A stretch of DNA of 64,000 bases, from positions 1-64,000 of IMG/VR virus record IMGVR_UViG_3300012979_001162. One strand, given 5' to 3'. The notes below the pieces were generated by a model. It worked only from the letters and a program-made list of their open reading frames with translations. It ran no database searches and had not been told where the DNA came from. The position numbers and the translations under genes are program-made. Source of the stretch: a virus (Duplodnaviria > Caudoviricetes). Of the stretch, positions 5,751-64,000 are shown piece by piece. Position 1 is the first letter of the stretch. Every line of letters begins with the position of its first letter.

Positions 5751-5963
5751 ATGCAACAGAAATCAATTATCCTCGAAATGGACGAGGCAAAAAGAGAATT
5801 AATACAATGCGCCAATAATATTATGCAGAAACACGGACTCAATTGTTATTTGATGGAGCCGGCGTTTGCAGAATTGTATGCCGAAGTTAAAGCCGAGGCC
5901 CAAAGAGAGTTGGTGCAGGCAAGACAAGCGGCGATGGCTGCTCAAACACCACAAAATGATTAA
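5751..5963 (+). CDS. Small hypothetical protein
   Basis: AAGGAG RBS, 70 aa, follows tail fibre. Confidence 0.7.
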   Translation: MQQKSIILEMDEAKRELIQCANNIMQKHGLNCYLMEPAFAELYAEVKAEAQRELVQARQAAMAAQTPQND

Positions 5964-5964
5964 A

Positions 5965-5988
5965 GAGGGGGCGGCAATAGTCGCCCTC
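5965..5988 (+). other. GC-rich intergenic hairpin (terminator or processing site)
   Basis: GAGGG..GGCGGC-AATA-GTCGCCCTC stem-loop without a clear U tract. Confidence 0.4.
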
Positions 5989-6022
5989 AGATAAATAATG
6001 AGAAAAAGGAGAAATAATTATT

Positions 6023-6580
6023 ATGACTATACAGGAATTTGTAGAAGCTTACAAAGAACAGAGATTTATGAGCACCCCTCAGGGTCTTAACGAAAAATCA
6101 GAGTGGATTAGAGGACAACTTGGAATTAAAAAGTACATCCCTTTTATGGAGAAGAGAAAGATTGCCGAGATGATTGTAGAGCAGAATATTGAAGTGGTTG
6201 ATGGAATTAAGAAGTATGACAACATTGGCGCATACATTAGTTTTATTATGGCTTCTATCATTGCGCACACATCACTTGAATGTAGCGACGACCCCGTAGC
6301 AGACTATGATTTGCTTGCAGAGAGCGGGCTTTTGTCCCAGATTGTGGCAGAGTTTCAGGAGTCTCACAATGAGATTGATATTTTGCTCAAAATGGATGTG
6401 GCATATGAGCTAGAGGATAACCAGCCCGGCGCATTGATTGGCAGATTTTTAGATGGCGTGCTTAAGAAGCTTGATGGTGCGTCAGGCATGCTGAAAGAGA
6501 TCGTTGGCAATCTCGATTTAGAAGAAATGTTTAGCGAGGAAAATGTGGCCAAGATTGTTGGCTTTTTGAATAAAAAATAA
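6023..6580 (+). CDS. Hypothetical protein (possible tail assembly chaperone)
   Basis: AAGGAG RBS; acidic helical 185 aa upstream of tape measure. Confidence 0.6.
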   Translation: MTIQEFVEAYKEQRFMSTPQGLNEKSEWIRGQLGIKKYIPFMEKRKIAEMIVEQNIEVVDGIKKYDNIGAYISFIMASIIAHTSLECSDDPVADYDLLAESGLLSQIVAEFQESHNEIDILLKMDVAYELEDNQPGALIGRFLDGVLKKLDGASGMLKEIVGNLDLEEMFSEENVAKIVGFLNKK

Positions 6581-6599
6581 TTTGAAGGAGTTGGTGGAT

Positions 6600-7148: not shown

Positions 7149-7153
7149 GATAG

Positions 7154-10100
7154 ATGGATAAAATTATTAGACATGGTTTGGAAATAGCGGCAGGCCTGGA
7201 TAAAGCGTCGAAAGACGAAATGATGAGGGCTGTTCGAGAGGTATTTACAGAGGGCGCTATTATAGATTTTCAAAATAAAGAAAACATTAGAGGTTTGCGC
7301 GAGTTTGCTAAAGTGTTTAAGAGCGTATTCGAAAGGGCAGGAAATAATACTATTGATTTTAATAAAATTATGGAACTGCCATCAGAGGATATGTTTAAGG
7401 AACTTGGAAGAATTGCAGCAACATCGTTTTGGGATGCATGGAATACAATTTCTAGCAGTAGCGGTGGCTTTGCAAGTGAGCGTAATAGAATTGAGGCGGA
7501 ATTTAATTCATTAATTCAGACGCAGAAGCAAAAAATGCAAGAACTTGAAGATTGGCAATCAAAACTAAGAAAGAAAAAAGATGCCGAACGTCGTTTGTAT
7601 TTTGACATGGCTACTAAAGAAAGGGTTTCATATAAGAGTAATGACGACTTAAAAACTAGGGCCAACACAGCATATAATGAATTTGATACTGTAAATTTCG
7701 AATTGCAAGAAGCTAAAGAAGCCGGGCGTGTTACCGAAAAGTTATTATCAAGATGGCGAGATGCGGCTACGGAAATAGTGAAAGTCAAAAATACAGTTGA
7801 TGAATTAAAATTTCAAGTCGTCCATAAAACCGTGAAAGACGGAGGTATTTTTGGTAAAACAAAATCGATTCCTCTTATCGAAGAAATATTAGGCAGTAGA
7901 ATGGCTGACTATTTTACATCCGAGATTGGTGGAGAAGGCTTGTCGGACGATCTTTTAATTGGAACATCTGCTATAGAAGATTTTGTAGATACTAAGGCAA
8001 TAACAGACAAAATCGGTGATATTCAACAAAGTTTGATTAAACTTGACAATCAAATAGCTGATATGTCCGCGAATTATCCTGATTTGGTTGATAAGCAGAA
8101 GGTAACAGAAGCCGAGGAAGCAATTGATAGGGTATCAGCAGCATATGATAGATTATTGGTTAAATCTGGTAGCAATAAAGGGAAACTCAAAGCAAAGGCT
8201 TTAAAAGATATACAGTCTGCGATAGATTATTCTCCTAAATCTGCTGGCAACTTTGCAGTTTCGGATGATATGTCTGAAGCAAAAATAAAAAGCATCAGCG
8301 AAAAGGAACAAAAAGCATATGCGCAATTAAAGTCTTTGGCTGAATCTTATGCTCACTCAGAGGGGAGTTCTTGGGAACAACGTGCACAATACTTGTTAAA
8401 ATTTATTAAAGAATATGAGGCGCAGGTTAATAATCCAACACTATCTCATGAATTGACTAGTAGTCTGGCAAGTCTATATAAAGAACTGAAGCCAATTGAA
8501 GAAAGTACTAAAACAATGCTTCAGAATGTTGTTAATATGGCAAATAACGTTCCGGAAATTGGTATAGATGGCTCCGGTTCTGGCGCAGAAACTGGTGATG
8601 GTACCGGCTCCGGAGATGCATCTTCTTCTGAAACAGAGAACCTTCGTCAGCAACTTGAAGAGGCTAACAGAAAACGCAAAGAAGCAGAATTAGCAGAGCG
8701 TGTTGCACAAGAGAACGCTACCGCCGAAAGACACGCAACAGAAGAAGCAGAAGAGAGAGCCGAGATGTATCGCCGCGCGATGGATAGCATGCAAGAAGAG
8801 ATGGCGGATCTTCGTGGGCAGTTGGCGGATGCAGGTAGTGGTAGTGGAGATGGTTCTGGTGGTACTCCAGAATTAGAACGGGTTGCGAAAACAATTGAAG
8901 AAAAAAGAAACGTATTAGAAGAACTTCAGAAAAAAGTGAATAAAAGCCTTGAAGATCAAGGCACAAATATGTATGTGGCAACGCAAGAACAACTTGATAA
9001 AGCAAAACAAATATTATCCGAGTACGAGAAAATTCTTGTAAAGACGGCTGGTGGTAAGAACTTAACTCTTGGCCCAGATATGTCTAACCAAGATTTAATG
9101 AAATTCCTCGGTATGGATGCTCAAAAGGCTAAGAATGTTGAATTTACTAGGAAGGCTGGTATTGGCACAGGTGCTTCCAGAGATAATCGTACCGAGGAAG
9201 ATGTCGAGAATGCTCGCAAGGTTGCCGAATACGAGGCTCAGGCAAGAGCTGAAGCAGAGGCAAAAGCGAAAGCAGAAAAAGAAGCACGAGAAGAAGCAGA
9301 ACGGCAGGCCCAGGCAGAAAAAGAAAAAGAAGAGAGTCTTAAGAGACAAAGGGCCGCAGAAGAACGGATTGCAAAAGCTAAAGAGAGAACCGCGAAGGCT
9401 GCCGCAGAAAAAGCAGCGTCTGAAGAAAAGACAAAAGCGTTAATATTAGAGCAAAAACAGGCTCTTTTAGAAATGCTCGGAATGTCGAATGAAGCCGGGC
9501 TCTTCTTTGATTCCAAAACGGGAGAGATAAGTGATATTGTTGAGGGCGGCGCACATAGCGTAGAAACCACATCGGGAGCATGGAATAAAGCATCTACTCA
9601 ATATGACGGACGTCTTCATTCACACAATTATGATGTTGCCGCCCCTAGTTTTAGTGGAAAAGATAATGATTTTGCTGTATGGCTTAAAGGATTCGATTAT
9701 ATTAAAAAACAAATGATCCTTGCCAACAAAGAACTCTTGTCTTTTGATTTTTCATCAATTAGCCGTGAGACATTAAGACATATTGCGGCTTTGTATTCGA
9801 AGGCGGCAAGAGAAATTGATAAAGAGTTTGATGGTTATGTTAAAAATGGTCAAGTCGGCGAAAAGTTTGGCACGCTTGATAACTGGGATGAGCAGTTTCA
9901 GGCTCGCCTAAGAGATGCTCTGAATTCCATTATGGAGAAGTCGGAGTATGCTGGAATTATGACCTCTCAGCAACTTCCACAAGATATTATTGACACACAC
10001 AGAGAACAGCTTGCTAAGAATCAAGCCAAAGTTGCCAAGAAGCCTAATGCTGCAGATGGCATGTCTTTGGCGGATGAGTATGAGCGAGCCAATGATGAAG

Positions 10101-12517
10101 TGAAAGAACTAATTAAACAACTCGCAGTTCTTTATAGCACATATGATGATAGTTTTGTTGGCGATACAGAAGAAGATCCAATTATGGCGCTTGAGGAAAG
10201 GTTGCGGAACTTGCGACCAGATCTTGCAAAAATTGAAGCGTCGCAATTCGAAGATCTTGCTAAGACGTTAACGTCAGAAGAACAATCTACTATTCTTGCA
10301 CAAATTAAAAGCGAAGCAGCAGCCACAGAACAAGCGGTAGATGGATTAAATGAGAGTTTGGAGAAAACTCAACAATTGGCATCTAATGATGGCGCTGGAG
10401 CGGGCACGGGTGACGCCTCTCTTTCTGAACTTGAAGTAGAAAGGGGAAAGGCAGAATCTCTTCAAAATGAGATTGAGCAGAAAAATTCTGCACTTCAAGC
10501 GGCCAATGAAGAAAAACAAGCACTACAAAATGATTTAGACACAACTAGACAGCAACTTGTAGACTCGGAACATGAGAAATCTCTATATGATTCCGCAATG
10601 AATCAACTTACTGAAGAATCTGATGCTAAGGATAGGGTAATTTATGACCTTCGTGAGCAGCTATCAAATGGTGGTGACGCTATATTTACCGCAGAACAAC
10701 GTGCAAACGAAGCAGAGGAAAGAGCAAGTAATCTGGAGCGTAAACTTGCAGAATCATTTGATGGCGATAAGAAACAAGGGTCTGTTAATACCGAAGAACT
10801 TAAGACGCTTCTTAATTCGATTGTGTATAATGTCAAGATTGTGCATGACGATAATGACAAGACGGCAAATAAGATTGCGCTTGATGATTCTACTCTTGAG
10901 ACAACTTTGACTAAGGTTTTTGCGAACATTCTGAATCCTCAAACACAACAAAATGATTCCGAGCAGAAACAATCGTCTTGGGCACTTGAAAGCACATTAC
11001 AAACCGTTAAAGGTGTTCTTGATAACATTCATACGAATACTACCAAGATTGGAAGTTTTAATACTTCCAACGTTGATGCAATAGCAGGAACAGCTCTTGA
11101 TGGCAGGCTTACTGAAATAAGGTCTGTTTTGGAGTCTATTGACAACAAGATTGCTAAAGGCGGCGTTATTGCGACAAGAGGAGCCGTTAAGCAGGCAAAT
11201 GCTCAACCCATAGAATCCGAAGCGAAAACTCAGGCCGCTCGCTCCAATATGCTAAAGTCGCTTATCAACGATTATAAGACTCTTGGTAAGTTATCTGCGC
11301 AGTTTTCAAACGATGGAAATCTTGAAACACAAGCAATGCTCAAAAATCTCAAAGAAGAGATTGCTAGAAAGAGACAGTCGTTAAATATTACGATGGATGA
11401 AAACAGGAGCCTGAGGGAGAAATATAGCATAGCATTTGATGCCGAAAAGAGATTGTTGGATGCCGCGAAGGCACAGGCAAAGATAAATGAAGACAACAGA
11501 GACGACAAGACAGCTTGGAAAAAGAAGGTTAAAGACGCACAGAGAGCAATGGGGGTTAATGCGGCAACAAGTGCAGTTAATGCAGGTGATCAAACTGTAT
11601 TGCGAGCCATTGGAACCGAGGGTGTTTCACAAGATATTGCGAATAAAGCTAAAGAATTATCAGATCAGATTAAGACGTTACGTGTATTACGTGATGAAAT
11701 TGACAAGAAGGGCGAAAAAGCATCTGATGAAGATAGAGATAATCTAAGTAAACAGATATCTAAGGTTAAAGAGCTGAAGACTGAGGTTGATGGTTATCTG
11801 AAGATTCACGAAAAGTATAGCGGTGATAATGTAACTGATCTTGGCGATGCAAGCAATTTTGGGGCCGTTGGTACTGATCAGTATTGGAATAATATTACTG
11901 CGGCAATTAAGAAAGCCCAATCTGGCAAGATGACCATTAAGGGGCTTAATGCGGATACAGGCGAATTGACTGGTACAACCAAGATAGCTGCGAATACTTT
12001 TGCAACCTGGAGCGCGACGGTTGATCCGCTTACGGGCAGACTGAGTATGTTGCGTACCGGAATTAAGAAGACGGAGACACTGGTTGAGATCATCACCCGT
12101 AAAACAAAGGAAATTTTTACGTACTTTAGTGGTTCGAGTATTATTTTCAAGGCATTTAATGAGCTCAAGAAGGGCGTTCAGTATGTAAGAGATATTGACC
12201 TTGCGCTGACTGAGCTTAAGAAGGTAACAGATGAAACAGAAGAAACTTACAGGAAATTTTTAGATACTGCGTCTAAGACTGCGGCAAAAGTTGGTAGTAC
12301 GATTAAGGATGTTATTAGTTCTACTGCCGACTGGGCCCGTTTGGGATACAGTATGAAAGAAGCTGCGGAATTTGCAGAATCTACACAAATTTTAATGAAT
12401 GTCAGTGAATTTACTGATGTTTCTCAGGCAACAGATACGTTAATTTCTGCGGTACAAGCTTTTGGGTATACCGCAGAAACATCAATGGATGTTGTAGATT
12501 TGCTTAATACAATAGGT
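7154..12517 (+). CDS. Tape measure protein, exon 1 (1788 codons)
   Basis: C-terminal part is the phage minor-tail/TMP domain (DIDLALTELKKVTDE...ADWARLGYS...DLLNTIG); exon ends in U at a P1 U-G pair. Confidence 0.9.
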
Positions 12518-13711
12518 AAAATAATTGCCTATAGATAACTATAACGGTTAAAGGCTAGATATAGTTAAGACCGTGGAAAGATTTGATATTCATAATAAAA
12601 AAAATACAAAGGGGGTGAATAATATGGGGTTTATAGACTTAACTGGTACAAAACTTAAATACGCAACAGTGTTATATCGTACAAATGATCATGTTAAACC
12701 AAGCGGACAGCGCGTACCAGTATGGAAGTGTTTATGTGATTGTGGACAAGAATTTGATGTATGGGGGTCAAGCATAAGAAGATCTCCTGATACGATATGC
12801 TGCTCGGAGTGTAGAAATGTTAATAGAAAAATAAAAAATCGAATTAATATTGTTGGTAAAAGATATGGAAGACTTACAATACTTGAATCGATTTATAATG
12901 AACACCAAACACAGGTAAAATGTTTGTGTGATTGTGATAATATTATTGTTGTTTGTCAAGCCGACGTTGTTAATGGTCATACTAAATCTTGCGGATGCCT
13001 TCACAAAGAAAAGACTTCTGAGTCTAATACAAAAGATTGGGCTGGGCATATATCTAATTATGGCGTTGAATTTTTATCACAAAGCCATATGAATAATAAA
13101 GGACAGTGGATTTGGAATTGCAAATGTGGAATATGTGGCGATGAGTTTGTTGCTTTACCAGCAAAAGTGAACAATGGGCAGATTACATCATGTGGATGTG
13201 CATCACAATCATCCAAAGAAAGATTGATTAAAAATATATTGGATGATTTAAGCGTTGATTTTATACCACAATATTCATTTTCTGATTGTAGATATAAATA
13301 TCCGTTAAAATTTGATTTTTGCGTATTATATAAATCTCATGTATTGTATTTAATAGAATATGATGGTAAGCAACATTTTGAGCCAATTGATTTATTTGGT
13401 GGTGACTTAGCTTTTAAAGAATTACAAAAGCGAGATAACATTAAAAATGAATATTGTAAATCTAATAATATTCCTTTATTGAGAATACCATATACATTGT
13501 CGGACGAAGAAATTAAAAATATAATTTATGAATATCATTTATCCGTAACGACTGCAGGATGTGCATAGTAATATGCATATTGAAGTTATCCTTACAAATT
13601 ATGTAAGTAATATACAGTCTGAACTCACACTATAATATATGAAATGAAATGTGAGAGATAGGCCGAAAGACCTATCCGCCATAGTAATATGGTCATAAAA
13701 GTAACAGTTTG
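12518..13711 (+). mobile_element. Group I intron 1 in the tape measure gene (1194 nt, ORF in P6 region)
   Basis: P1 ATAGGT|.../GCCTAT with U-G at the splice site; P3 GATAACT/AGTTATC; P7 GACTG/CAGTC; terminal G13711; splicing restores LNTIG|NNYAIST. Confidence 0.92.
12624..13568 (+). CDS. Intron-encoded homing endonuclease (Cys-rich repeats plus C-terminal Vsr/DUF559-like PD-(D/E)XK domain)
   Basis: CLCDCG/KSCGC repeats; SKERLI...LKFDF...IEYDGKQH...KRDNIKNEYC...LLRIPY; 3' end runs into the intron core. Confidence 0.82.
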   Translation: MGFIDLTGTKLKYATVLYRTNDHVKPSGQRVPVWKCLCDCGQEFDVWGSSIRRSPDTICCSECRNVNRKIKNRINIVGKRYGRLTILESIYNEHQTQVKCLCDCDNIIVVCQADVVNGHTKSCGCLHKEKTSESNTKDWAGHISNYGVEFLSQSHMNNKGQWIWNCKCGICGDEFVALPAKVNNGQITSCGCASQSSKERLIKNILDDLSVDFIPQYSFSDCRYKYPLKFDFCVLYKSHVLYLIEYDGKQHFEPIDLFGGDLAFKELQKRDNIKNEYCKSNNIPLLRIPYTLSDEEIKNIIYEYHLSVTTAGCA

Positions 13712-19581: not shown

Positions 19582-19769
19582 TAAGTATTAAACTTACTTA
19601 GTCCGCTATAATACGAAAGTTTATAGTGTATCCCTTTTAATTGCTGGGACTTCCTTAGAGTCTCACAAACAACAACGTGGTTGGTGACAACGAGCGTGAA
19701 TGTTTAAAAATTGTGAGAATTGGATAATCAGCAGCCAAGATTTGTAATATTATTTGTTTATTTTGCTAA

Positions 19770-19798
19770 TTGACAAAACAAAATGATTATGGTATAAT
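19770..19798 (+). promoter_or_regulatory. Consensus sigma-A promoter inside intron 3, with the 17-bp box in its spacer
   Basis: TTGACA-N17-TATAAT with extended TG. Confidence 0.8.
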
Positions 19799-20023
19799 AT
19801 TACAAATAAGGTTCAACGGCCATTCCCTGAAATGGGATTAGGGGCAAGTGTCCCGAAATGGAGGGTGCCTAAGGTCATTACAGTACAAAATGATTATGGC
19901 AAATGATATGGTCTGCACTTCGATGAAAGTCGGAGAAATTACTGAAAAGTAAACTGTGAGATTTAACGAATCTAAAATTAACAAATTATACAATACAAAA
20001 TGATTTAACAAGGAGGTGAGAAT

Positions 20024-34776: not shown

Positions 34777-34858
34777 TTTTAACAAATTGTAAATTATATC
34801 ATACATATATTGACATTTTGATAATTTTATGGTATAATACATACGATACAAAATGATT
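34777..34858 (+). promoter_or_regulatory. Composite promoter: direct repeat, sigma-A core and 17-bp box
   Basis: TTTTAA-N5-TGTAAA(34777-93), N16, TTGACA(34810)-N17-TATAAT(34833), TACGATACAAAATGATT(34842-58). Confidence 0.82.
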
Positions 34859-34944
34859 GGTGGGACAGTGGAGTAGCTACCATTGGTCGCCTTACCGACC
34901 TAACCACCTCATTTTGTTTTTTTACCTGTAAGGAGGAGCTAAAG

Positions 34945-36779: not shown

Positions 36780-36780
36780 T

Positions 36781-41535: not shown

Positions 41536-41561
41536 TTTCCTTTCAATCATTTTGTATTGTT

Positions 41562-41777
41562 TTAATCTTTGGTAATGGTTGCCACGAAGCGTCCACAATG
41601 ACATTCATAAACTCCGGGAACGTTGCTATTAATTATCTCTCTAAAGCTTTCGCACATGCATTTATCTTTCTGTGGGTCAGAACGAATACTACAAGGGCAA
41701 ATGTGGTTATTTTCTTCGAGTTGTTTTAAAATTTCTGTCAGCAACTCTCTATCTTCCGTTTGTTTAATCTTAACCAT
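41562..41777 (-). CDS. Ferredoxin:thioredoxin reductase catalytic-subunit-like protein
   Basis: CPC...CMC...CHCG motif triplet. Confidence 0.75.
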   Translation of the reverse strand: MVKIKQTEDRELLTEILKQLEENNHICPCSIRSDPQKDKCMCESFREIINSNVPGVYECHCGRFVATITKD

Positions 41778-44148: not shown

Positions 44149-44149
44149 A

Positions 44150-44368
44150 TTACTGCTCCTTAATCCATTCTTGAAGTTGTTTTGTGTCGTAACATACACC
44201 GTCGATAATTGCAAACGGTGCTGATTTAATATTGTTTTCTTCTGCTACGGACATTACTGTGTCTTTATTGTCAATTACTTCAAAGTCAATCTTCTTTTTG
44301 TCCATCAACATTTGAAGTACCTTACATTTTGGACAGTGGATAGTGTAGTACTTAATTACTTTTCCCAT
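44150..44368 (-). CDS. Glutaredoxin/NrdH-like redoxin
   Basis: CPKC and SAP motifs, 72 aa. Confidence 0.85.
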   Translation of the reverse strand: MGKVIKYYTIHCPKCKVLQMLMDKKKIDFEVIDNKDTVMSVAEENNIKSAPFAIIDGVCYDTKQLQEWIKEQ

Positions 44369-47068: not shown

Positions 47069-47402
47069 TGTTACCGTCTCCTTCCATGTAGAATTTCTTT
47101 TTCTCATAAAGGATGCCATTAACAGGATTATCGTCAATTGCATCCTGGGGAAGAAGTCGTTGTGTTCTTGGCAAATCTTTGTATGCCTCCGACATTACAT
47201 CGTCCCACTGTTGCTTTGTTAATTCACAGATCGTCCTATCGCCATATACAGGCACACAATAAGGCAGGAAGGCGTGATCTTGGTAGTTAAAGTCGTACTT
47301 ACGCTTTCTAATACGTTCAATAAGAGCCTTTCTTCTATCTTCTGTAAAAGTTACTCTCTGACAATAACCTGAATAGCAACTGGTCCATCCTATAACTGTC
47401 AT
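47061..47402 (-). CDS. Hypothetical protein
   Basis: Overlap-coupled with neighbours, GAGG RBS. Confidence 0.65.
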   Translation of the reverse strand: MTVIGWTSCYSGYCQRVTFTEDRRKALIERIRKRKYDFNYQDHAFLPYCVPVYGDRTICELTKQQWDDVMSEAYKDLPRTQRLLPQDAIDDNPVNGILYEKKKFYMEGDGNNG

Positions 47403-47704
47403 ACCTCATCACCTTCCGTCGCTTCTTTCAAATCATTTTGTTGTGTTTCTTGTTGCTTCAACTGCACAGATACAATCTCGACAACTCTCTTAATCGCTCT
47501 CTGATAATCACGCAAACTAGACTGAGAGCCCTTCTTAAGATTTTTCTCAATTGCCCCATAGACTGCTGCGGCAATAAAGGTGGCACCCACTTTCATTCCT
47601 GAAGTTCTTGTGCTTTCAAACCACTTTTCAATCACCTTGCGCAGCTCTTCTTCGGATGCGTTCTGAATTTCAGAGACCACCTCTGTCATTTTTGTTTCTT
47701 CCAT
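47399..47704 (-). CDS. Hypothetical protein
   Basis: GAGG RBS; first gene after a composite promoter. Confidence 0.65.
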   Translation of the reverse strand: MEETKMTEVVSEIQNASEEELRKVIEKWFESTRTSGMKVGATFIAAAVYGAIEKNLKKGSQSSLRDYQRAIKRVVEIVSVQLKQQETQQNDLKEATEGDEV

Positions 47705-47731
47705 AATACATTCCTCTCTATGTTATTGTAC

Positions 47732-47812
47732 AATCATTTTGTACTGTAACTATTATATCACTTTATTAAAAATTGTCAACATACGTTTCTGTTAGTTTAC
47801 AATTTATTTACA
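47732..47812 (-). promoter_or_regulatory. Composite promoter: direct repeat, sigma-A core and 17-bp box
   Basis: TGTAAA-N5-TGTAAA(47812-796), N16, TTGACA(47779)-N16-TATAAT(47757), TACAGTACAAAATGATT(47748-32). Confidence 0.82.
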
Positions 47813-48391: not shown

Positions 48392-50356
48392 TTACTCCTC
48401 CAACATTTTCATTAATTCATCTTCATATACAACCTTGACACCAAGACTCTGTGCTTTGGTAAGTTTAGACCCAGCCTTTTCACCACAGAAGAGCACATCG
48501 AGATTTTTGCTTACGCTACTTACAAACTTAGCACCCTTGGCCTCAAGTTTTTCTTTGAGTACATCTCTGCTCTGTGAGAAACTTCCGGTAATACAGAATT
48601 TCAAACCATTGAGAGGATTATCTACAACCTCTACCTTAGTCTGCACAACAAATCTCATCTCGGCAGCCAAATCAACGATTTCTGCCTCATTTTCCGTTAA
48701 GTACTTAGTGATTTCTGCAGAAGTTTTATCGCCAACACCTTCTAATTCACACCAATTATAGCCATCCTCAAATGCCTTATAAAACGCATTAAAATCACCG
48801 TTGAATGCATCTGCAAGAGTTTTAGATGCAGACTTGCCTACGCCATCTATACCGAGTGCAGTAATGAAATTTTCTAGCTTAACATCCCTTGAATTTTCAA
48901 TGGATTTTAGCAGAGTACTTACGGATTTTTCGCCCATACCTTCTAACCTAGTAAGTGATTGTTTGTGTTCGTTAAGGTGATAAATATCCTTATAAGTGTG
49001 CAGAAAATCGTGTGAAATTAGAGTTTCTAGCGTCTTCTCTGAGAGTCCTCGAATATCCATACAATTTTTGCTTACAAAATGAGTAAATTTAGCAAGGCTT
49101 CTAGAGGGACAGTGTTCGTTGGGGCAATACAATACGTTAGCCGTTCCGGTATTCTTGATAATAAGCTCCGTGCCACAGGAAGGGCATTTATCAATGATTG
49201 GTAGCTGATAATTCTCAGAGTTATAATCCAAATTAACCTCGATGGCAGGAATAACCATATTTCGTTTACTGCAACAAATTCGATCTCCAATTCTTAATTT
49301 TAAATTATTGATATAGTCCAAATTGTGTAGTGTGGCACGAGAAACCTGTGAATCTAAAATAGATATTGCGTCGAACAAACCAGTAGGCGTAACAATTCCG
49401 TTTCGCGATGTATTCCACTCTATCCCTCTAAATACCGTCTCAACTAAATCATCCTGTTCCTTCTTTGCGAGACCATAGTTATAGTGATGACTTGTTCTGC
49501 CAAGCGACATGCCATACGCATAGTCGTCATAACGAATAACGACTCCATCGCACGGAATACCATTATCATCTGCATATTTGTGAACCATACTGATAATGTC
49601 TGGGGTTTCCTCCATCCCCATATTACCAGTCTTTATGCGATAGATTACCTCGAACCCAAGACTTTCAAGAATGTTAAATCTTTCATTTAACGAATTAATA
49701 TCATCCATTCCTTCTATAACATCGAAGGCCATAAAATGTATATGTCTTTTTGCACACTCGCTACTATCAAGAAGTGAAAGACTTCCACTTGCTAGATTTC
49801 TACAATTAGCATATTTATCTTCTTCCGGCAAAGATGCGTTAATTTTATCAAGTTCATCTTTTAGTATAACGCTCTCTCCAACAACAGTAAAATCTTTGCC
49901 ATAATTAACTTTTAACGGAATATTAAAAGTTTTTGCATTATGGGTGATTAGGCTACCCTCAACTCCATTGCCACGAGTTGATGCTTCAATAAGCTCCGCC
50001 GTTACGCCGTCATATGATTTATAGATCAACTTGGTTGTCAATCCATCGCCTTTAATCATAAATAAAACATCTTTATCACCCGTAAACTTTACAACGTCTT
50101 CTACGGATTTCGTTTTTGCCAAACTCAATAAAGGAATGTTGTGTTGTACCTTAGGTAATGTATCTACCACCTCGTATCCAACAGATTGCGTTGGTGAATT
50201 GGCAAAATAACAATTCGTTTCTTTTTCGAGTTCTGCCAACTCATCAAAATATCGATCATATACATCGTCTGTAACCAATGGCTGGTGATTATAATAAGCA
50301 TCTCTGTATTGATTACATAATTCAATTAATTCTTTTATCTTCTTTATCTGCTTCAT
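48392..50356 (-). CDS. ligA: NAD-dependent DNA ligase
   Basis: AYY...YD, LLSL, KGDG, STRGNG, RNLASG, Zn finger, HhH, BRCT (CITGS...GSKLTKA). Confidence 0.95.
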   Translation of the reverse strand: MKQIKKIKELIELCNQYRDAYYNHQPLVTDDVYDRYFDELAELEKETNCYFANSPTQSVGYEVVDTLPKVQHNIPLLSLAKTKSVEDVVKFTGDKDVLFMIKGDGLTTKLIYKSYDGVTAELIEASTRGNGVEGSLITHNAKTFNIPLKVNYGKDFTVVGESVILKDELDKINASLPEEDKYANCRNLASGSLSLLDSSECAKRHIHFMAFDVIEGMDDINSLNERFNILESLGFEVIYRIKTGNMGMEETPDIISMVHKYADDNGIPCDGVVIRYDDYAYGMSLGRTSHHYNYGLAKKEQDDLVETVFRGIEWNTSRNGIVTPTGLFDAISILDSQVSRATLHNLDYINNLKLRIGDRICCSKRNMVIPAIEVNLDYNSENYQLPIIDKCPSCGTELIIKNTGTANVLYCPNEHCPSRSLAKFTHFVSKNCMDIRGLSEKTLETLISHDFLHTYKDIYHLNEHKQSLTRLEGMGEKSVSTLLKSIENSRDVKLENFITALGIDGVGKSASKTLADAFNGDFNAFYKAFEDGYNWCELEGVGDKTSAEITKYLTENEAEIVDLAAEMRFVVQTKVEVVDNPLNGLKFCITGSFSQSRDVLKEKLEAKGAKFVSSVSKNLDVLFCGEKAGSKLTKAQSLGVKVVYEDELMKMLEE

Positions 50357-51080
50357 CTTCTTTGTACCTCCAAATAAATCCCCCAGAACTTTGTGATCCT
50401 CCACGACAACATCTGGTAATTCCGGTATAGCAAATACCTAAAGCGATTGAGGCATCCTTAGCACATTCCCACGCCTTGATAAAATTTCCGTCCATATCAT
50501 ATTGGAAAGCTATTCTTGCCCTAGGATTTTCTGAGCCAATATTCTGGTCTTTGTGAATGTTTGACATATGTTGTCTATATTCTTCGTTCTTCCATCTATC
50601 TTTTGCCAAATCGCTTAGTAGTTGCTTTGTTTCCTCTGAATGTTCTTTATTGAAGAATGGATTGTTTTCTCCTGCCAATTTGTGATTTCCATAATTGGGG
50701 TTCTTGCTTCCTATATATGTTTTGGCATGTTCGCTTCTGCGCATTCTTTCAGTATCACTTATAGGTATCCCCTCGGCTCCACCCTCTCCACCAGAAGAAA
50801 TGTTATAGCCATATAATTTGTTGTTTGATTTGTAATAAGCAATCAATTCCTTTTCTTTGTTTGCCGCCTCTTCTTTTGGTAAGGCGGTAAACACTATTTC
50901 ATGTTCAAAATTATCCCAACCATATTTTTGAATTGCACTGTTGAAATATTGATTATTTTTATATCCATTACCCTTATGCCATCGTTTTTCTGGTGGTTCT
51001 TGGCATGTCATCCCAATATATACTTTTCCACTTGGGCTGGTGTGCTTGTATACACAATAAAGTTTTTCTTCATTTCCCAT
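50322..51080 (-). CDS. Free-standing GIY-YIG endonuclease (NUMOD3/NUMOD1)
   Basis: CVYKH...VYIG, GYNISSGG, NPFFNKEHSEETK, C-terminal HTH; 3' end overlaps ligA start. Confidence 0.88.
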   Translation of the reverse strand: MGNEEKLYCVYKHTSPSGKVYIGMTCQEPPEKRWHKGNGYKNNQYFNSAIQKYGWDNFEHEIVFTALPKEEAANKEKELIAYYKSNNKLYGYNISSGGEGGAEGIPISDTERMRRSEHAKTYIGSKNPNYGNHKLAGENNPFFNKEHSEETKQLLSDLAKDRWKNEEYRQHMSNIHKDQNIGSENPRARIAFQYDMDGNFIKAWECAKDASIALGICYTGITRCCRGGSQSSGGFIWRYKEDEADKEDKRIN

Positions 51081-51159
51081 AAATCCTTTATAAATAATTT
51101 CTTCTTTTGTAGAATTTTTTACATTATTTATTAAACCTCCTTAATCATTCTGTACTGTA

Positions 51160-51612
51160 TTACATTTCAATCTTCAAATTCTTTCGCTTCTGATCCGGTC
51201 TCCAAACATATATCCATTTGTTTGCATTAAATTCAAATGTGTTGTCGCTAGTATCGTACTCTACAACACTCGCATCCATTTTTACTAAAACCTTATCTGG
51301 TTTCATACCATATCGCTTCAACCATTTCTTATTAATTCTTTTCTTGTTATGCCATCGTGCCTGAACCATTATCGGCACATAATATTGCATAACAAAACTT
51401 TTTGGATGCCACATATCTTCCAACATTTCTTTCGTAATAAAAGTTGTATCTATTGGAAGAGTAGGCTCTGCATCAAATTTACATCTTAATGCGTTTTCTG
51501 TACTTGCCGATAACTCATAACACATAGACATAGAGGAGCCATCTGAAAGTTTCACAAAATCTTTATCATTATCTAGATAATACAATGTTCCACCATTAAT
51601 TTGATTTATCAT
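51160..51612 (-). CDS. Hypothetical protein
   Basis: AAGGAG RBS; RWHNKKRINKKWLKRYG basic motif. Confidence 0.65.
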   Translation of the reverse strand: MINQINGGTLYYLDNDKDFVKLSDGSSMSMCYELSASTENALRCKFDAEPTLPIDTTFITKEMLEDMWHPKSFVMQYYVPIMVQARWHNKKRINKKWLKRYGMKPDKVLVKMDASVVEYDTSDNTFEFNANKWIYVWRPDQKRKNLKIEM

Positions 51613-52023: not shown

Positions 52024-52041
52024 ACGTTTTCCTTTCTGTAT

Positions 52042-52123
52042 AATCATTTTGTTGTGTATTTATTATATACCCACATCAAATTATTGTCAACACCTTTATG
52101 TAAACATTTACAATTTGTTAACA
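52042..52123 (-). promoter_or_regulatory. Composite promoter: direct repeat, sigma-A core and 17-bp box
   Basis: TGTTAA-N5-TGTAAA(52123-107), N16, TTGACA(52090)-N17-TATAAT(52067), TACACAACAAAATGATT(52058-42). Confidence 0.82.
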
Positions 52124-52149: not shown

Positions 52150-52929
52150 CTATAATTTAGCAGTGTAAGTTAAACAGATAAAACCGGCGCCACTCAACAG
52201 CTTGCCCCACACCTCGTTGCCAACAACTACCTCGCTCACTATCGTATAAACCTCATTTCTTTTTACCGTAGTTACTATTGGATAATTCGTTCCTGCACCC
52301 TTTCTTACGTTTAATACATCTGTTGTAACCCTTACTAAATATCTTGTACTTTGCCCCAAGATTGATGCAACAAGATTCCTAAATTGGTCCATAGTTTTGC
52401 CGTGAATAGTAAACCAATGGTCGCAATCTGCGTGATTGGAAGCATACCCTTTCTTATGTGCTTCGGCGTGGCTTACTATTGATGATGGCTGTAAGTTAAA
52501 CTTCTTACAAAGCATAGCACAGTATTCCGCTGCTACTCTGTACACTTCGTTGAAATATTCTTCATTCCACAGATTATCTTCGCATAACTCAATCTGAATA
52601 TGACCAGTTGGATTGTAATTATAACTACCATACTTTCCACTGCCGCACCCCCAACAAGCGTAGTTGTATGGAAGTATGTTTGCCACTCTTACTTGATAGT
52701 TTTTATCATACCCTATAAAACTATGCACGCACATTTCACCAATCTTGCTGGACGGATTGTTCCAATGGTTGTTATACCAATTAATGCCACACTCGGATTT
52801 ACAGTCTACATACCTTTTTAAGTTCGGATTGTTTGCCCCGGTGCTATGTAGTACAATCCCTACTGGTGTCATAGGTTGCTTTGCTTTATAGCAATCATTT
52901 TTAGTTGCGTAAGCCGTAATAATGTCCAT
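52150..52929 (-). CDS. N-acetylmuramoyl-L-alanine amidase (Amidase_2) with SH3b domain; endolysin-like
   Basis: IVLHSTG, VHSFIG, IELCE, VSHAE...HAD; LNVRKGAGT...WGKL.SGAG. Confidence 0.9.
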   Translation of the reverse strand: MDIITAYATKNDCYKAKQPMTPVGIVLHSTGANNPNLKRYVDCKSECGINWYNNHWNNPSSKIGEMCVHSFIGYDKNYQVRVANILPYNYACWGCGSGKYGSYNYNPTGHIQIELCEDNLWNEEYFNEVYRVAAEYCAMLCKKFNLQPSSIVSHAEAHKKGYASNHADCDHWFTIHGKTMDQFRNLVASILGQSTRYLVRVTTDVLNVRKGAGTNYPIVTTVKRNEVYTIVSEVVVGNEVWGKLLSGAGFICLTYTAKL

Positions 52930-52950
52930 AAAAAAAATCAACTCCTCTAT

Positions 52951-53020
52951 AATCATTTTGTATTGCTACAATTTAATTATAAAGGAATTGATTGTTTTTG
53001 TCAAATCATTTTGTATTGTA
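52951..53020 (-). promoter_or_regulatory. sigma-A promoter of the amidase, flanked by two 17-bp boxes
   Basis: Box 53020-04, TTGACA(53004)-N17-TATAAT(52981), box 52967-51. Confidence 0.8.
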
Positions 53021-53021
53021 A

Positions 53022-53813: not shown

Positions 53814-54905
53814 CTATATTATTTGATTATTCTGCAAATTGGATTGGTTATCATTTAAAGAGTTGTACCATTCTATAAAATCATCTATTTGCTTTTTTAC
53901 TTTTTCTGACTTCACAGGGTTAATCCACGGTATTCTGTATATTACAAATCCATTTGCGGTTAATCTTTTATCTCGTAGTGTATCATGTTCTTTTCTCTCT
54001 TCGTATTGATGCTGCTTCCCATCAATCTCAAGATCAATATATCCATCGATTAAAAAATCTAAAAAATAGCATCCTTGCTCATCAATGCCTATATCTGTTT
54101 TCTTGAGAGTATATTCTGGTTCATATTGTAGTTTATTATTTGTTAACACTCTCTCCCAAAATAACTCGGCATAACTACGAATCTTTCTTGTTTTCCATCC
54201 AATGTGTTTGCCCTCGTCAATCAATCTTTTCTGAACTTCTGTTCCGATTTTAGATCTTTTGGCATGAGAGACTTCGGATGTAGTAACATAAGATTCACCG
54301 AATTCATTTCTTAAGTCATTTATGGTTTTATCGTGTTGCTTAAGGTGGCTAGCATTAATGTTTGCTAGTCTGACATTACAATAAGGGCAAACAACAAAGT
54401 CAACACCTTCAACTTTGTCTAATGTGTAATGTTTTAAATTTCTATACGTTATCACACCTTGCACGTATAAATCTTTTGTACCGTTCGCATATTCATTGAA
54501 ATTTATACGCACATCACATTCATTTTGCTGTTTTTCAGTTTGTTGAGCATATCTTTCCCTCAAGGAATTTGATATTTTAATTTTACTTTCGGAAGTATGT
54601 ATGCGTCCTTTGTTGTTGTGTTTTGCAGCACAACTACTGCCGCAAAATCGTTTTCTTTGATAATCTGCAAAGCTATTTTTTGCACTAATTGGAATTAATT
54701 TTCCACACTCTTCACAACACTTCGTTACAATTTCTCTTTTATGGTTACATTGCTTGGCAACACCAATCGCTCGTTTCGGCATGTCATGCTCAAAGCCACA
54801 TATAGTACACTTAACATGATACATTTTATGACCGTCATTCGATTTATAGCCGCAAAGATACAATACCTTATGAATGCCTATAACCGTTCCTATGATATCA
54901 TCCAT
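53814..54905 (-). CDS. Free-standing homing-endonuclease-like protein (Zn fingers, NUMOD3, DUF559/Vsr-like domain) at the 3' end of the tRNA cluster
   Basis: GGAGG then ATG 54905; SYAE...YFLDF...LEIDGKQH...DTLRD..L...G..IYRI. Confidence 0.8.
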   Translation of the reverse strand: MDDIIGTVIGIHKVLYLCGYKSNDGHKMYHVKCTICGFEHDMPKRAIGVAKQCNHKREIVTKCCEECGKLIPISAKNSFADYQRKRFCGSSCAAKHNNKGRIHTSESKIKISNSLRERYAQQTEKQQNECDVRINFNEYANGTKDLYVQGVITYRNLKHYTLDKVEGVDFVVCPYCNVRLANINASHLKQHDKTINDLRNEFGESYVTTSEVSHAKRSKIGTEVQKRLIDEGKHIGWKTRKIRSYAELFWERVLTNNKLQYEPEYTLKKTDIGIDEQGCYFLDFLIDGYIDLEIDGKQHQYEERKEHDTLRDKRLTANGFVIYRIPWINPVKSEKVKKQIDDFIEWYNSLNDNQSNLQNNQII

Positions 54906-55060
54906 ATATTCCCTCCAATCATTTGTTTTGTTATGGTACCAGATGTTAGTACTGCCCTGATCCTCGAAACCCCAAATTTCGCATGCTTCTTTCACACCCC
55001 ATCTGATATTTTGTAAGTTCTTAATTATAGGGAAAGAACTGTGACTGTAAGAAAACCATT

Positions 55061-57108: not shown

Positions 57109-57822
57109 TCAAACTTGAATGCCATATACAGAAAACCACGTCTGATGTGATTTTCTATGTTTTGTTGATGGAGGTTCTTTGAGCATAGCAGAGATAAGCT
57201 CTTTTGTTTTGTTTACTCCGTACTCTCGTACGGATTTGTTGATAGTATTTATGCCTAATCCCAATTTTTGGGCCCACTGTTGTCCTGTTAATACTTCACT
57301 CTCAACTTCAATCCAATTGACCTTGCCTGCTCTTCTAGAATTTTCCTCCAACGGAATCCATCGACAGTTACTGGGGGAATAGTCTACGTCGGGATCAATT
57401 CTATCTATGGTTAGAAATTCTTCGTACCCATTGTTCAAAGCCCACTTTTCAAATTTACCAGGGTTATCCAACCACTCTTGACACACTTTAATACCCTTTT
57501 CCCCATACCACCTATAGTTTTTGTCATTTGGATTATAGCATCGAACAATGATGCCTCTGAAGATCTTACCAAGACGACTATTCTCCCATTTATGCCTATT
57601 AATAATGTACTCTCCGTTAGTTCTTAAGTGGGTGCATTTATTTGATAGTTTGCTTGGTGCAGAAACCCCACTATATGTAAATTCTGTTTCAAAACCACAT
57701 TCGTTGCATACACATTTATAAATTCGATGTCTGTACTTATCGGTTTTATCTGTTATATCTGCTATTGTATAGATTCCGTGCACTTCTCCAATGTGAGATC
57801 TTGGATCAAATTTTTCTACCAT
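57109..57822 (-). CDS. Free-standing HNH-like homing endonuclease at the 5' end of the tRNA cluster
   Basis: RCYNPN..Y..YG.KGIKVC.EW...LTIDRID...YSPSNCRW. Confidence 0.85.
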   Translation of the reverse strand: MVEKFDPRSHIGEVHGIYTIADITDKTDKYRHRIYKCVCNECGFETEFTYSGVSAPSKLSNKCTHLRTNGEYIINRHKWENSRLGKIFRGIIVRCYNPNDKNYRWYGEKGIKVCQEWLDNPGKFEKWALNNGYEEFLTIDRIDPDVDYSPSNCRWIPLEENSRRAGKVNWIEVESEVLTGQQWAQKLGLGINTINKSVREYGVNKTKELISAMLKEPPSTKHRKSHQTWFSVYGIQV

Positions 57823-57839
57823 AATATTATGTCCTTACT

Positions 57840-57923
57840 AATCATGCTGTATTGTGTACTAATTATACCACAATCATTTTGTATTGTCAATATATTTCCG
57901 TAATCGTTTACAATCTATTTACA
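57840..57923 (-). promoter_or_regulatory. Composite promoter heading the endonuclease-tRNA cluster
   Basis: TGTAAA-N5-TGTAAA(57923-07), N16, TTGACA(57890)-N17-TATAAT(57867), box in spacer (57888-72) and degenerate box (57856-40). Confidence 0.85.
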
Positions 57924-58085
57924 TTTACTCTTTTTCTCCGCATCTCGACGCTTAACTTCTTTTAAAAAGCAATCCCAACTGCAAGTATATTCTCCCGCAA
58001 TCAAACAACAAGTATCTACCGTTACCTTAAATGTCTTGCTGCAAACCGGACAAACCACCATATCCCCTATTTTGCTAGGCTTCAT
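57915..58085 (-). CDS. Small Zn-finger protein
   Basis: CPVC...CSWDC; start MKPSK. Confidence 0.6.
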   Translation of the reverse strand: MKPSKIGDMVVCPVCSKTFKVTVDTCCLIAGEYTCSWDCFLKEVKRRDAEKKSKCK

Positions 58086-58573: not shown

Positions 58574-58574
58574 A

Positions 58575-59428: not shown

Positions 59429-59480
59429 TGTCTGCCCTCCTCAAATTTCGTTCTTTCTACCTCTTTCATTTCTTTTCTCC

Positions 59481-59561
59481 AATCATTTTGAACTGTAATT
59501 AGTATATCATACATTTTCCAATTGTCAAGGGGTTTATGTAATTGTTTACATTTCGTTTACA
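59481..59561 (-). promoter_or_regulatory. Composite promoter: direct repeat, sigma-A core and 17-bp box
   Basis: TGTAAA-N5-TGTAAA(59561-45), N16, TTGACA(59528)-N16-TATACT(59506), TACAGTTCAAAATGATT(59497-81). Confidence 0.8.
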
Positions 59562-62600: not shown

Positions 62601-62798
62601 TTTCATCCCAGCTTTTTCAATAGCCTCTTTCTTACCGTGCCAATCGAACACCGAACCATGCTCGCTGAGTGCGAGAGCAGTCATACCGAGCTCTTGAGCT
62701 CTCTTAACATAGTCTTGATATTTAGTAACTGAATCAATGTTGGTAACTCCATTTGACATATCTGAGTGCAAATGCAGTACCGTATAATTATTATTCAT
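59631..62798 (-). CDS. dnaE: DNA polymerase III alpha subunit (family C)
   Basis: PHP HLHS/SEHG, GRGSVSGS, DIDTD, HPSG, KLDILGL, FQWES. Confidence 0.95.
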   Translation of the reverse strand: MNNNYTVLHLHSDMSNGVTNIDSVTKYQDYVKRAQELGMTALALSEHGSVFDWHGKKEAIEKAGMKYIHAAEFYITEKIDVDEDGNPIKLRDNWHCLLIARNFDGVKEINRLASKSFNRKDGHYYYAPRIEFADLLNTSDNVIISTACLGGILNRASDNIQKQFIDFIMKNKNRCFLEIQHHNVSDQKVYNQKLYNLSKTYGLQLVACTDTHSLNEEHAEGRKILQLSKNIRFDDEEGWDLTFKSYDELCETYEKQDSLPKEIYLEAIENTNKIADMVETFEVDRQTKYPHIYDDPDKTFKTKINEAYKKHPHLKSRYPSAQVVKQIREEYEVYKKVGAIDFMLLETYLREWERENDIQCGYGRGSVSGSLIAYALGITQMDSLKFDLNFFRFMNPGRVTNADIDTDYCSKDREKIKYFLLHDRMNLPHIKTSEIITFNTIATKGAIKDVCRALNISLDEAQQISDAVNIDGTIDDKWKEKYPEVFKYVDIVSGTIVSIGSHPSGVLVSDKEIEADVGLCSLSTSDYPVSMLDMHGLDDQMYVKLDILGLDNIGVINECCKLVGIDRLTPDNVDLEDEAVWRSIRDDTTMIFQWESDSAAAYLKRFMSDTVVAKAREQSKNFSYIKWFSFGNGLLRPACASYRDEVADGVFYDNGFKELNDFLAPEAGRVCMQETIMRFLTDFCGYSSAESDNVRRGIAKKKGTEQLLPEIERRFIEYSSTHYDITKERCQEVIKPFLQIILDASSYGFSWNHSDAYSCIGYVCGYLRHYYPLEFLTAAFNTFTGKEDKIVAITKYANKVGIKIQPPKFRYSRSGYQMDKATNSIYKGLESIKYLNADVSEALYNMKDTQFNSFIDFLNVSPLNSRQLEILIKLDFFREEFGGSLKLLKIVDLYNLLHGKKQVKKEKTTLPMEILTQYCVSETEKMFKFDEDHMDAMLADLCNRIPDQDIPLLTKIQTEQEMLGYVSHIDPTKPTKAVILDINTKYTPRLSLYRLYDGQTVSVKLKKKDYESNPLSSGMIVDYRTTKKPAWKKDGENWVQDYSREDIWLTSYTIE

Positions 62799-63748
62799 AT
62801 AGCCACCTCATAATCTTTATATTTAGATAATTTCATATATGACTTACTGTCATAAATCATCACGCCCTCTTTATTTAGATGGTATCTTATATATGTTTCC
62901 GTCACCGAAAGATGTTTTGCTAAGGCTGCGGCATTTGTAAATACCACCTTGTCTTCGACGCATATCACAGGAATGACTTTAGAATTAAGCAAACACACAT
63001 CAATCAAATAGTTTAATCTATAATCATCATTTAAATACTCCTCTGAATATAAGACCCAATGTTTGCCACCAGCTGTTCTTACTGGGTGCTTAAGTGCCAC
63101 CGTTACACTACCCTCGCATTTAATATTGTATTTCTGCATAGCAAATTTAATACAATCAAACACCTCTCCGGTCTCTATACATATAACTCGTGTTGCCTTT
63201 GGATTATTTTCATTAGCAGATAACCCATTTGTTTTACGTGTCTCACTTAAATGCTGCTTCATTTCCTCCGTCCAATAATTTCCATAGTTTGGATTATTGT
63301 CGCCCTGTACAAGTTGTGCAATCTTCTCTCTGAACTCTTTAGATTTATATGGACCGTTTTCGTCGGCGCGAATTGCGATCATCTTTTCTCTAAAATCCTC
63401 ATCTTGCCACTGTGCCCTATGAATATCTGACTGTTTCTTTTTAAATTCTTCGGGAGCAACCCATCCGGTAGATCCCTCTCCGCCATCTGTTTGATTGGTT
63501 AAACGAAAGTCGGTATTTTCCTTGTACCATTTAATCGTTTCTTGTTCCTTTTGAAAGGCTTCTGATTCTGTGAGGTTTTCATAGATTTTCTTTGCATTAC
63601 AGTTATGAGATGTATACATATTAGTAAAGAACTTATTTCTACCAGACACTTGTTTATATCTTCTACCTTTACCTTTTCCTACATAAAACACTTCGTTTGT
63701 TTCTGTAATATACCAAATATATACATAATACAATCTTTCGTTGTCCAT
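62795..63748 (-). CDS. Free-standing GIY-YIG endonuclease (NUMOD3-like) upstream of dnaE
   Basis: YYVYIW...FYVGKGKG.R, LTNQTDGGEG, NPNYG. Confidence 0.85.
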   Translation of the reverse strand: MDNERLYYVYIWYITETNEVFYVGKGKGRRYKQVSGRNKFFTNMYTSHNCNAKKIYENLTESEAFQKEQETIKWYKENTDFRLTNQTDGGEGSTGWVAPEEFKKKQSDIHRAQWQDEDFREKMIAIRADENGPYKSKEFREKIAQLVQGDNNPNYGNYWTEEMKQHLSETRKTNGLSANENNPKATRVICIETGEVFDCIKFAMQKYNIKCEGSVTVALKHPVRTAGGKHWVLYSEEYLNDDYRLNYLIDVCLLNSKVIPVICVEDKVVFTNAAALAKHLSVTETYIRYHLNKEGVMIYDSKSYMKLSKYKDYEVAI

Positions 63749-63776
63749 CCAATCACTCTCCAATCATTCTGTATCG

Positions 63777-64000
63777 TTACCATTCGTCTTCTTCGCTTGT
63801 AATTACACACTCGTCGCAATTATCACTACAAAACTCGCCGTCCCATTGATAATAAATCAACATTCTCTGCTCTTTATTTAGATTAAGCAGCCTATGTGCA
63901 ATTTCAAGGCAGATGGTCTTATCGTGTCTATTAGCATTTTCTTCTCTATTGCAATATTCAATACACCATTGCAAATCATCATCGTCTATGTTGCCATCAT
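63777..64000 (-). CDS. Hypothetical protein, 5' end outside window
   Basis: Frame stays open to the window edge. Confidence 0.55.
   Translation of the reverse strand, partial: DGNIDDDDLQWCIEYCNREENANRHDKTICLEIAHRLLNLNKEQRMLIYYQWDGEFCSDNCDECVITSEEDEW

Follow-up and report, generated by a model that had tools for sequence, protein, structure and literature searches.

What reads a short, asymmetric box that recurs dozens of times in a large phage genome and almost always points in the direction of transcription? The question is raised by 64,000 nucleotides of caudoviral DNA (hereafter the window), which are bases 1-64000 of a single IMG/VR virus record of 162,648 bp, rated 95% complete. A first-pass annotation of the window had described a repeated box of this kind, compared it with the stoperators of mycobacteriophage L5 and the SPbeta repeated element (SPBRE), and proposed that one phage protein silences or roadblocks transcription genome-wide. 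The phage genome is SPbeta-like, and the box is probably the operator of a master repressor of the MrpR/YopR/SroF family encoded at 82722-83672 on the minus strand. This assignment combines sequence similarity, a structural model and analogy with studied relatives.

A polar box at promoters and operon junctions

The core of the box is ACAAAATGATT; information content across the genome extends it to wwACAmwACAAAATGATT plus one purine. Exact cores number 14 in the window and 41 across the 162,648 bp. At one mismatch or fewer the window holds 21 copies versus 5.65 expected, a number that none of 100 dinucleotide shuffles reaches. A 19-bp position weight matrix (PWM; informative length ~18-19 bp), used at a threshold of at least 12 bits, finds 52 boxes genome-wide, where third-order Markov sequences give ~2.6 by chance on both strands together. 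Co-orientation with transcription, claimed for the window by the first-pass annotation, extends to the whole genome, since 51 of these boxes run with the local gene arm and one runs against it; comparable numbers of antisense copies, named beforehand as the observation that would speak against the claim, are not found. The gene arms run on the + strand from 1 to 37.8 kb, on the - strand from 37.9 to 113.5 kb and again on the + strand from 113.6 to 162.6 kb, and box polarity flips at both junctions (~37.8 and ~113.5 kb), where GC skew turns as well. Two wrong-strand matches with one mismatch occur in the window, at 42614 and 49074; both score under the PWM threshold and look like chance. Single chance matches also make up most of the matches listed in an exact-pattern scan of IMG/VR. 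The box coordinates reported earlier all hold on re-examination of the window, including the degenerate copies at 57840 (ACAGCATGATT, 13.5 bits) and 54917 (the core minus one A), and an exact core inside an open reading frame (ORF) at 10525 (+) can be added to them.

The position of the box relative to promoters is often exact. Scanning the whole genome for near-consensus sigma-A promoters (TTGACA, 16-18 nt, TATAAT, with at most one mismatch in total) yields 21, and a box is present at 15 of them. At nine of the 15 the core lies exactly 9 nt past the -10 element, and if transcription starts ~7 nt past the -10 an 18-bp box would span about -5 to +13. At three promoters, whose -10 elements end at 19798, 152141 and 57862, the box occupies the spacer, always in one register (TTGACAAT abutting ACAAAATGATT), and the last of these carries a degenerate second copy after its -10. 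Boxes at 53004 and 85723 overlap a -35 element. The six box-free promoters include those of tubR/tubZ (-10 ending at 36448) and of the Xer-like recombinase (154), which is consistent with functions that a plasmid prophage must keep on.

About 30 further boxes have no promoter. Their typical order is a TAA stop codon abutting the box, followed by a Shine-Dalgarno sequence (SD), and a few overlap ORF ends or fall inside the tape-measure ORF. Some 25 boxes end 9-31 nt ahead of a start codon, just 5' of the SD. The placements described earlier (past a -10, in the spacer of a promoter, or in the gap from a stop codon to the following ribosome-binding site, RBS) are thus confirmed, as is the reading T-Q/P-Q-N-D of the copies inside ORFs. 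Spacing from box to start codon is loose, from 9 to 130 nt; taken with the rigid spacing to the -10, this argues that the box works at the promoter, as DNA, rather than within the mRNA.

Conservation in related phages had been proposed as a check on the box. In relatives that align at ~70-80% DNA identity, the 11 core columns are ~0.92 identical versus ~0.77 for the flanks, a comparison in which BLAST seeds may favour the box. Diverged lineages carry single-base variants of the box throughout their loci, all of them co-oriented: ACAAAGTGATT in a lineage whose MrpR-like protein is 42% identical (5-8 copies per ~20 kb), ACAAAATAATT in one at 47% identity (7 copies) and ACAAAATTATT in one at 31% identity (6 copies). 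Such a concerted, genome-wide change of the box implies one trans-acting reader. A relative whose portal protein is 92% identical has the same box together with an MrpR-like protein that is only 59% identical. The isolated phage phi6255 of Mammaliicoccus, also SPbeta-like, carries an A-tract box of its own, ATAAAATATAA, in 22 exact and co-oriented copies within the 40.8 kb (79201-120043) that surround its MrpR-like gene; many of them separate a stop codon from an RBS. This dense array appears to be undescribed, and dense arrays accordingly seem to be common outside SPbeta itself.

The MrpR-like protein as candidate reader

A tblastn search with SPbeta MrpR (YopR) finds one place in the genome, 83666-83175 (-), with E=1e-6, which corresponds to the 316-aa ORF 82722-83672. 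The top PDB matches of this protein by phmmer are YopR/MrpR (8bj6, 8a0a) at 8e-8 and SroF of phage phi3T (9rd5) at 4e-6, and its close homologues in a large protein collection carry the MrpR_C_cat domain. An AlphaFold (AF2) model, with a predicted local distance difference test (pLDDT) score of 76, retrieves the same proteins with Foldseek: MrpR 8a0a first (7.5e-9), then the SroF-DNA complex 9rd5 (1.5e-8) and YopR 8bj6, over a range of 7.5e-9 to 5e-8, while true recombinases score 1e-3 or worse, some five orders of magnitude weaker. By sequence and by model, the protein is a distant homologue of MrpR/YopR/SroF with the integrase (tyrosine-recombinase) fold. In a low-identity alignment its box II HxxR position reads LQNSG, with neither His nor Arg, and, like MrpR, the protein retains a C-terminal Tyr. 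Immediately upstream, ORF 83739-84725 encodes a canonical Phage_integrase protein, an arrangement that echoes yopP...yopR of SPbeta and the integrase...integrase pair of phi6255.

The only anti-oriented box of the genome belongs to an inverted pair, ACAAAATGATT-GCGTTC-ATCATTTTGT, at the promoter of the MrpR-like gene. With an 11-6-10 layout, the pair brackets the -35 and fills the spacer of the TATAAT promoter, and IMG/VR relatives with only 52-70% identity in the protein retain it. Two boxes facing each other at the repressor's own promoter suggest autoregulation. The proposal of one phage protein reading multi-copy, SPBRE-like sites gains from these results, namely an SPbeta-like genome with an MrpR/SroF homologue that has an inverted box pair at its own promoter; the binders put forward inside the window are not supported. 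The winged helix-turn-helix protein (36516-36779) is rejected as the box reader, being the TubR partner of TubZ with a box-free promoter of its own, and Pfam recognised no ribbon-helix-helix protein among ten small window ORFs tested. The first-pass annotation had also allowed that the binder might be encoded elsewhere, and the likely reader indeed lies outside the window.

MrpR, also known as YopR and SroF, is the master repressor of Bacillus phage SPbeta (PMC10516654), and its binding to SPBRE (Lazarevic 1999, cited in PMC10516654) is experimental (Kohm et al. 2023, PMC10516654). The papers print no sequence for SPBRE, and it was taken here from the SPbeta record. There, AAATACAAAWAATATGTATA occurs at ~13 sites, ahead of yonP, yonT, yonX, aimR, yopM, yopV, yorE, yorM, yorZ and yosX, the same genes that have MrpR peaks in chromatin affinity purification sequencing (ChAP-seq; ~10 peaks, PMC10516654). 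The SPbeta copies are asymmetric and all point the same way as the gene they precede; each adjoins a TATAGA/TATAAT -10 on its downstream side, stands immediately ahead of an SD or overlies a -35. The segment ATACAAAA is common to SPBRE and the present box, and the tail TG(A/T)(A/T)TA aligns too, given a 4-nt gap; from these sequences, homology of the two elements is plausible. The two phages have in common an A-tract box that is asymmetric, co-oriented and found past the -10, ahead of the SD or overlying the -35; homologous genes for an integrase-fold repressor, each with a canonical integrase gene upstream; and an SPbeta-like backbone with a YonO RNA polymerase and a recombinase among the tail genes. 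They differ in number, with ~51 sites here versus ~10 ChAP-seq peaks (~13 sequence matches) in SPbeta, and in placement, ~60% of the sites here being promoter-less stop-box-RBS or in-ORF copies, late arm included. The box sequence is also distinct, the protein is only ~25% identical, TubZ/TubR are present here and no arbitrium genes were found.

A structural precedent is given by SroF of phi3T, which as a monomer closes around an asymmetric A-tract box of 26 bp and is countered by the antirepressor Sar (bioRxiv 10.1101/2025.11.27.690993; PDB 9rd5, 9rgl). A monomer on an asymmetric box would explain a non-palindromic, oriented operator, and SroF is among the closest fold matches of the present protein (Foldseek 1.5e-8). 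Unlike the phi3T box, the conserved box here is 18-19 bp long and one site is an inverted pair; in addition, neither a Sar-like gene nor a LexA box was identified in this genome.

By analogy with SroF, one repressor monomer would clamp one asymmetric A-tract box. At some 15 sigma-A promoters the box straddles the predicted start site, occupies the spacer or overlies the -35, positions in which a bound repressor would exclude the host RNA polymerase, and we infer that the 82722-83672 protein binds the box and represses transcription in this manner. Its occupancy would keep the prophage, probably a plasmid, silent. The ~30 stop-to-RBS boxes inside long operons would probably either let the bound repressor block read-through, as stoperators do, or add binding capacity. 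The roadblock role taken by itself is a tentative proposal; the stoperator claim of the first-pass annotation agrees with the placement of the ~30 copies, which may or may not halt elongating polymerase.

Several observations weigh against this assignment of reader and box. The box and the protein co-vary only in part: proteins 44-100% identical share one box, the original box persists in lineages whose MrpR-like protein is 44-52% identical, and the ACAAAATAATT lineage shows no change in RRYRWVQRR, the putative reading helix. Similarity to MrpR is low (~25% identity, over the N-terminal half), and the Pfam scores for MrpR_N_CB (21.9 bits) and MrpR_C_cat (14 bits) are both under cut-offs. The partners known from the Bacillus phages are also missing from what was searched: tblastn gives no homologue of the arbitrium receptor AimR (best E=0.39), there is no intergenic LexA box, the sole GAAC-N4-GTTC match lying inside coding DNA, and no Sar-type antirepressor could be placed, a Sar-like gene not being searchable by sequence. 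Finally, the ~10-13 sites of SPbeta are all at promoters, and the ~30 non-promoter copies have no experimental precedent in the family.

Outside the family, the closest resemblance is to cluster A mycobacteriophages, in which L5 gp71 recognizes tens of asymmetric stoperators that keep one orientation relative to transcription on both arms. Many L5 stoperators lie in short intergenic gaps inside operons of phages of Actinobacteria, and a roadblock effect has been demonstrated for them. The present genome matches this pattern in its 51 co-oriented boxes versus one and in its ~30 promoter-less sites at stop-to-RBS gaps or ORF ends. The L5 repressor is a small helix-turn-helix (HTH) protein, whereas the candidate reader here has an integrase fold unrelated to gp71-like HTH proteins and the roadblock is one that we infer; the present system can therefore be stoperator-like in its working at most, and not a member of the L5 system. 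In the plasmid prophage P1, the monomeric repressor C1 binds asymmetric 17-bp operators dispersed over a large genome at fewer than 20 sites; to our knowledge, these operators have not been reported as strictly co-oriented with transcription. Dispersed asymmetric operators and a plasmid prophage, a probable one here, are what P1 shares with the present phage, and an unrelated fold and fewer sites are what sets it apart.

A wider proposal, speculative at present, is that in SPbeta-like phages outside Bacillus the repressor has expanded into a true stoperator network. Some 30 roadblocks, promoter-less and dependent on orientation, would then stop read-through in a plasmid prophage of 163 kb and guard in particular its ~10 homing endonuclease genes and intron-borne promoters, and immunity specificity would depend on which single-base form of the box a genome carries throughout. 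In that case a strategy known from mycobacteriophages, the stoperator, would have arisen twice, here with a protein whose fold is unrelated to theirs. MrpR/SroF repressors were characterized between 2023 and 2025, only in Bacillus phages and with about ten promoter sites known; the assignment made here would extend this switch to uncultured gut phages that look like plasmid prophages, with sites five times more numerous, strictly polar and mostly off promoters. Should the promoter-less copies block elongation, immunity groups of metagenomic phages could be read from the box sequence. The box would also be a practical marker for annotating early promoters and operon junctions in such large phages.

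Other readers and other functions

That another protein reads the box as a DNA operator is unlikely. The candidates would be the recombinase 83739-84725, the Xer-like recombinase 23-1210 or an unrecognized regulator, the inverted pair then being a resolution site of the dif/lox type. Its 11-6-10 layout is that of recombinase core sites, both recombinases are catalytically plausible and could in principle bind such a site, and homology to MrpR alone is no proof of which protein reads the box. These points tell against the MrpR-like protein as reader; fifty dispersed half-sites, oriented with transcription and placed at promoters and RBSs, would however make no sense for a resolvase, and in the experimentally studied relatives it is the MrpR/SroF orthologue that reads such boxes.

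The first-pass annotation had left room for an action in RNA, through antitermination or translation. The box would then be a 5'-leader or intercistronic element for a phage RNA-binding protein or nuclease, or a translation enhancer. The sense-strand position of all boxes but one and the ~25 copies that end 9-31 nt before a start codon, near the SD, speak for such an element and to that extent against a DNA operator, and primary transcripts would begin at about the box wherever the core lies 9 nt past the -10, if the start site is where it is predicted. The three spacer copies and the at least two copies over a -35 are, however, upstream of the start site of their promoter, the spacing is rigid to the -10 (nine at 9 nt) and not to the start codon, and the conserved inverted pair at the repressor promoter has the layout of a DNA operator. 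Moreover, what follows the boxes at 5951, 144343 and 153573 is a terminator or hairpin instead of a gene, and SPBRE, a plausible homologue of the box, is proven to be a site on DNA (PMC10516654). An RNA element is thus disfavoured, and we regard it as quite improbable.

Very unlikely, too, is a promoter for the YonO-type phage RNA polymerase or for a phage-modified host polymerase. A YonO-like polymerase is encoded here and the promoter sequence of YonO is unknown (PMC5467207). The box is asymmetric, co-oriented and just upstream of RBSs, also in the late arm, and it precedes ~10 homing endonuclease genes, a class that often has phage-type expression signals of its own. In SPbeta, YonO serves a single late operon with one start site upstream of yonK (PMC5467207), and no SPBRE lies at that site. 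In the present genome the box occurs on all arms, ahead of early and replication genes and of the polymerase gene itself, as well as in fixed register within sigma-A spacers and, at one promoter, as an inverted pair that relatives conserve; nor would a promoter need to keep exactly 9 nt from a host -10. Two further readings, a polar signal for chromosome handling of the KOPS/SRS or Chi kind and a remnant carried along passively by homing endonuclease cassettes, are rejected as highly improbable, for although polarity flips with GC skew at the arm junctions and about one fifth of the copies precede homing endonuclease genes, neither would account for the fixed 9 nt from the -10, the promoter spacers and the stop-to-RBS sites, and a core conserved above its flanks and changing in concert indicates selection by a sequence-specific reader.

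Box copies, homing endonucleases and genome content

Each box can be placed against its neighbouring genes, and on the + arm of the window the first (5944..5962, core 5951, 25.7 bits) shares bases with the stop codon of ORF 5751-5963; a hairpin comes next, and ORF 6023-6580 is 61 nt away. Within the tape-measure ORF 7154-12538 are the boxes at 10518..10536 (exact core 10525) and 10941..10959 (core 10948). A group I intron recognized by Rfam (19586-19935, 64.9 bits) in the tape-measure region contains a complete promoter and two boxes: the first (19771..19789, core 19778) fills the 17-nt spacer of this perfect TTGACA-17-TATAAT promoter, and the second (19878..19896, core 19885) lies downstream of it. 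The next box (19988..20006, core 19995) is 18 nt ahead of the ATG of an intron-borne HNH homing endonuclease ORF, 20024-21337. A near-identical box context at genome position 147252 suggests another intron or a non-coding RNA there. At 34841..34859 the core (34848) lies exactly 9 nt past the -10 of a TTGACA-17-TATAAT promoter that serves the NUMOD1/zinc-finger endonuclease-like ORF 34945-36183.

On the - arm, where cores are given by their leftmost base, the box at 41544..41562 (41545) lies between a TAA stop and the next RBS, with the ATG 9 nt past the core, and that at 47430..47448 (47431) lies at the 3' end of ORF 47399-47704, with the next start codon (47402) 28 nt on. The core lies 9 nt past the -10 at 47731..47749 (47732; TTGACA-16-TATAAT), at 52041..52059 (52042; TTGACA-17-TATAAT) and, as the one-mismatch variant TCAAAATGATT, at 59480..59498 (59481; -10 TATACT), a site where relatives carry ACAAAATGATT. 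The endolysin gene (52150-52929) has a promoter with two boxes, one 14 nt past the -10 (52950..52968, core 52951) and one that abuts and overlaps the -35, GATTTGACA (53003..53021, core 53004). The degenerate copy ACAAATGATT (54917..54926), with one A deleted, lies immediately ahead of the SD of ORF 53814-54905. The HNH endonuclease ORF 57109-57822 has a box in the spacer of its TTGACA-17-TATAAT promoter (57871..57889, core 57872) and the degenerate ACAGCATGATT 11 nt past the -10 (57839..57857). The variant ACAGAATGATT, with one mismatch, occurs upstream of the GIY-YIG homing endonuclease ORF 50322-51080 (51142..51160, leftmost 51143) and 13 nt ahead of the ATG of the homing endonuclease ORF 62795-63748 (63761..63779, leftmost 63762).

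These endonucleases of the window are part of a set of ~10 homing endonuclease genes (HNH, GIY-YIG, NUMOD), each of which has a box directly ahead of it, several having a sigma-A promoter to themselves as well; in the rest of the genome they lie at 81672-82661, 125085-125738, 152263-153585 and 155645-157162. These mobile genes seem to be controlled in the same way as the operons of the phage itself.

Some features of the box surroundings deserve mention. The strong box-bearing promoters share an architecture of ~80 bp, and in the window a WalR-like TGTAAA-N5-TGTAAA motif lies 16 bp upstream of a -35 at 57900-57925 (-). At genome positions 153530-153620 and 144336-144400 the box is followed immediately by a terminator-like hairpin with a T run; a weak promoter upstream of the 153.5-kb box makes a very short, box-only transcript conceivable.

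The SPbeta-like character of the genome is seen in its gene content. A 944-aa, single-chain DNA-dependent RNA polymerase of the YonO type is encoded at 125768-128602; its closest relatives are in Clostridium phage c-st, Enterocloster phages, Bacillus phage BUCT082 and the SPbeta-group phages (SPbeta yonO). A box lies ahead of its gene, as does an HNH/NUMOD4 endonuclease gene that has its own sigma-A promoter and box. The order polymerase, exonuclease, portal mirrors SPbeta, exonuclease and portal being arranged like yonJ-yonE there, and a recombinase lies among the tail genes, like SPbeta yomM. The 395-aa XerC/D-like tyrosine recombinase at 23-1210 has intact catalytic motifs. In tblastn, SPbeta YopP, YopQ, YopO, YonR, AimR, YonN, YopM and YopN find no convincing homologue in this genome. 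A megablast search of a window segment against isolated phages gives no match, nor do single-protein scans of IMG/VR with P0126 and P0134, and a scan of a genome-contig collection with an alignment of MrpR-like proteins brings up no relative. The + arm carries genes for a tail fibre, the tape measure, minor tail proteins and several homing endonucleases. At 36516-37806 (+) it encodes the TubR-like winged helix-turn-helix protein (36516-36779) and a TubZ tubulin-like GTPase, which form a type III partition pair like that of Clostridium phage c-st. This pair and the two tyrosine recombinases suggest maintenance as a plasmid prophage, and the host is probably a gut Firmicute. The - arm of the window includes a nucleotide-metabolism block, with a dUTPase at 40705-41217 and, at 41777-44925, a radical-SAM activase-like ORF, a 637-aa ORF, a glutaredoxin-like ORF and NT5C.

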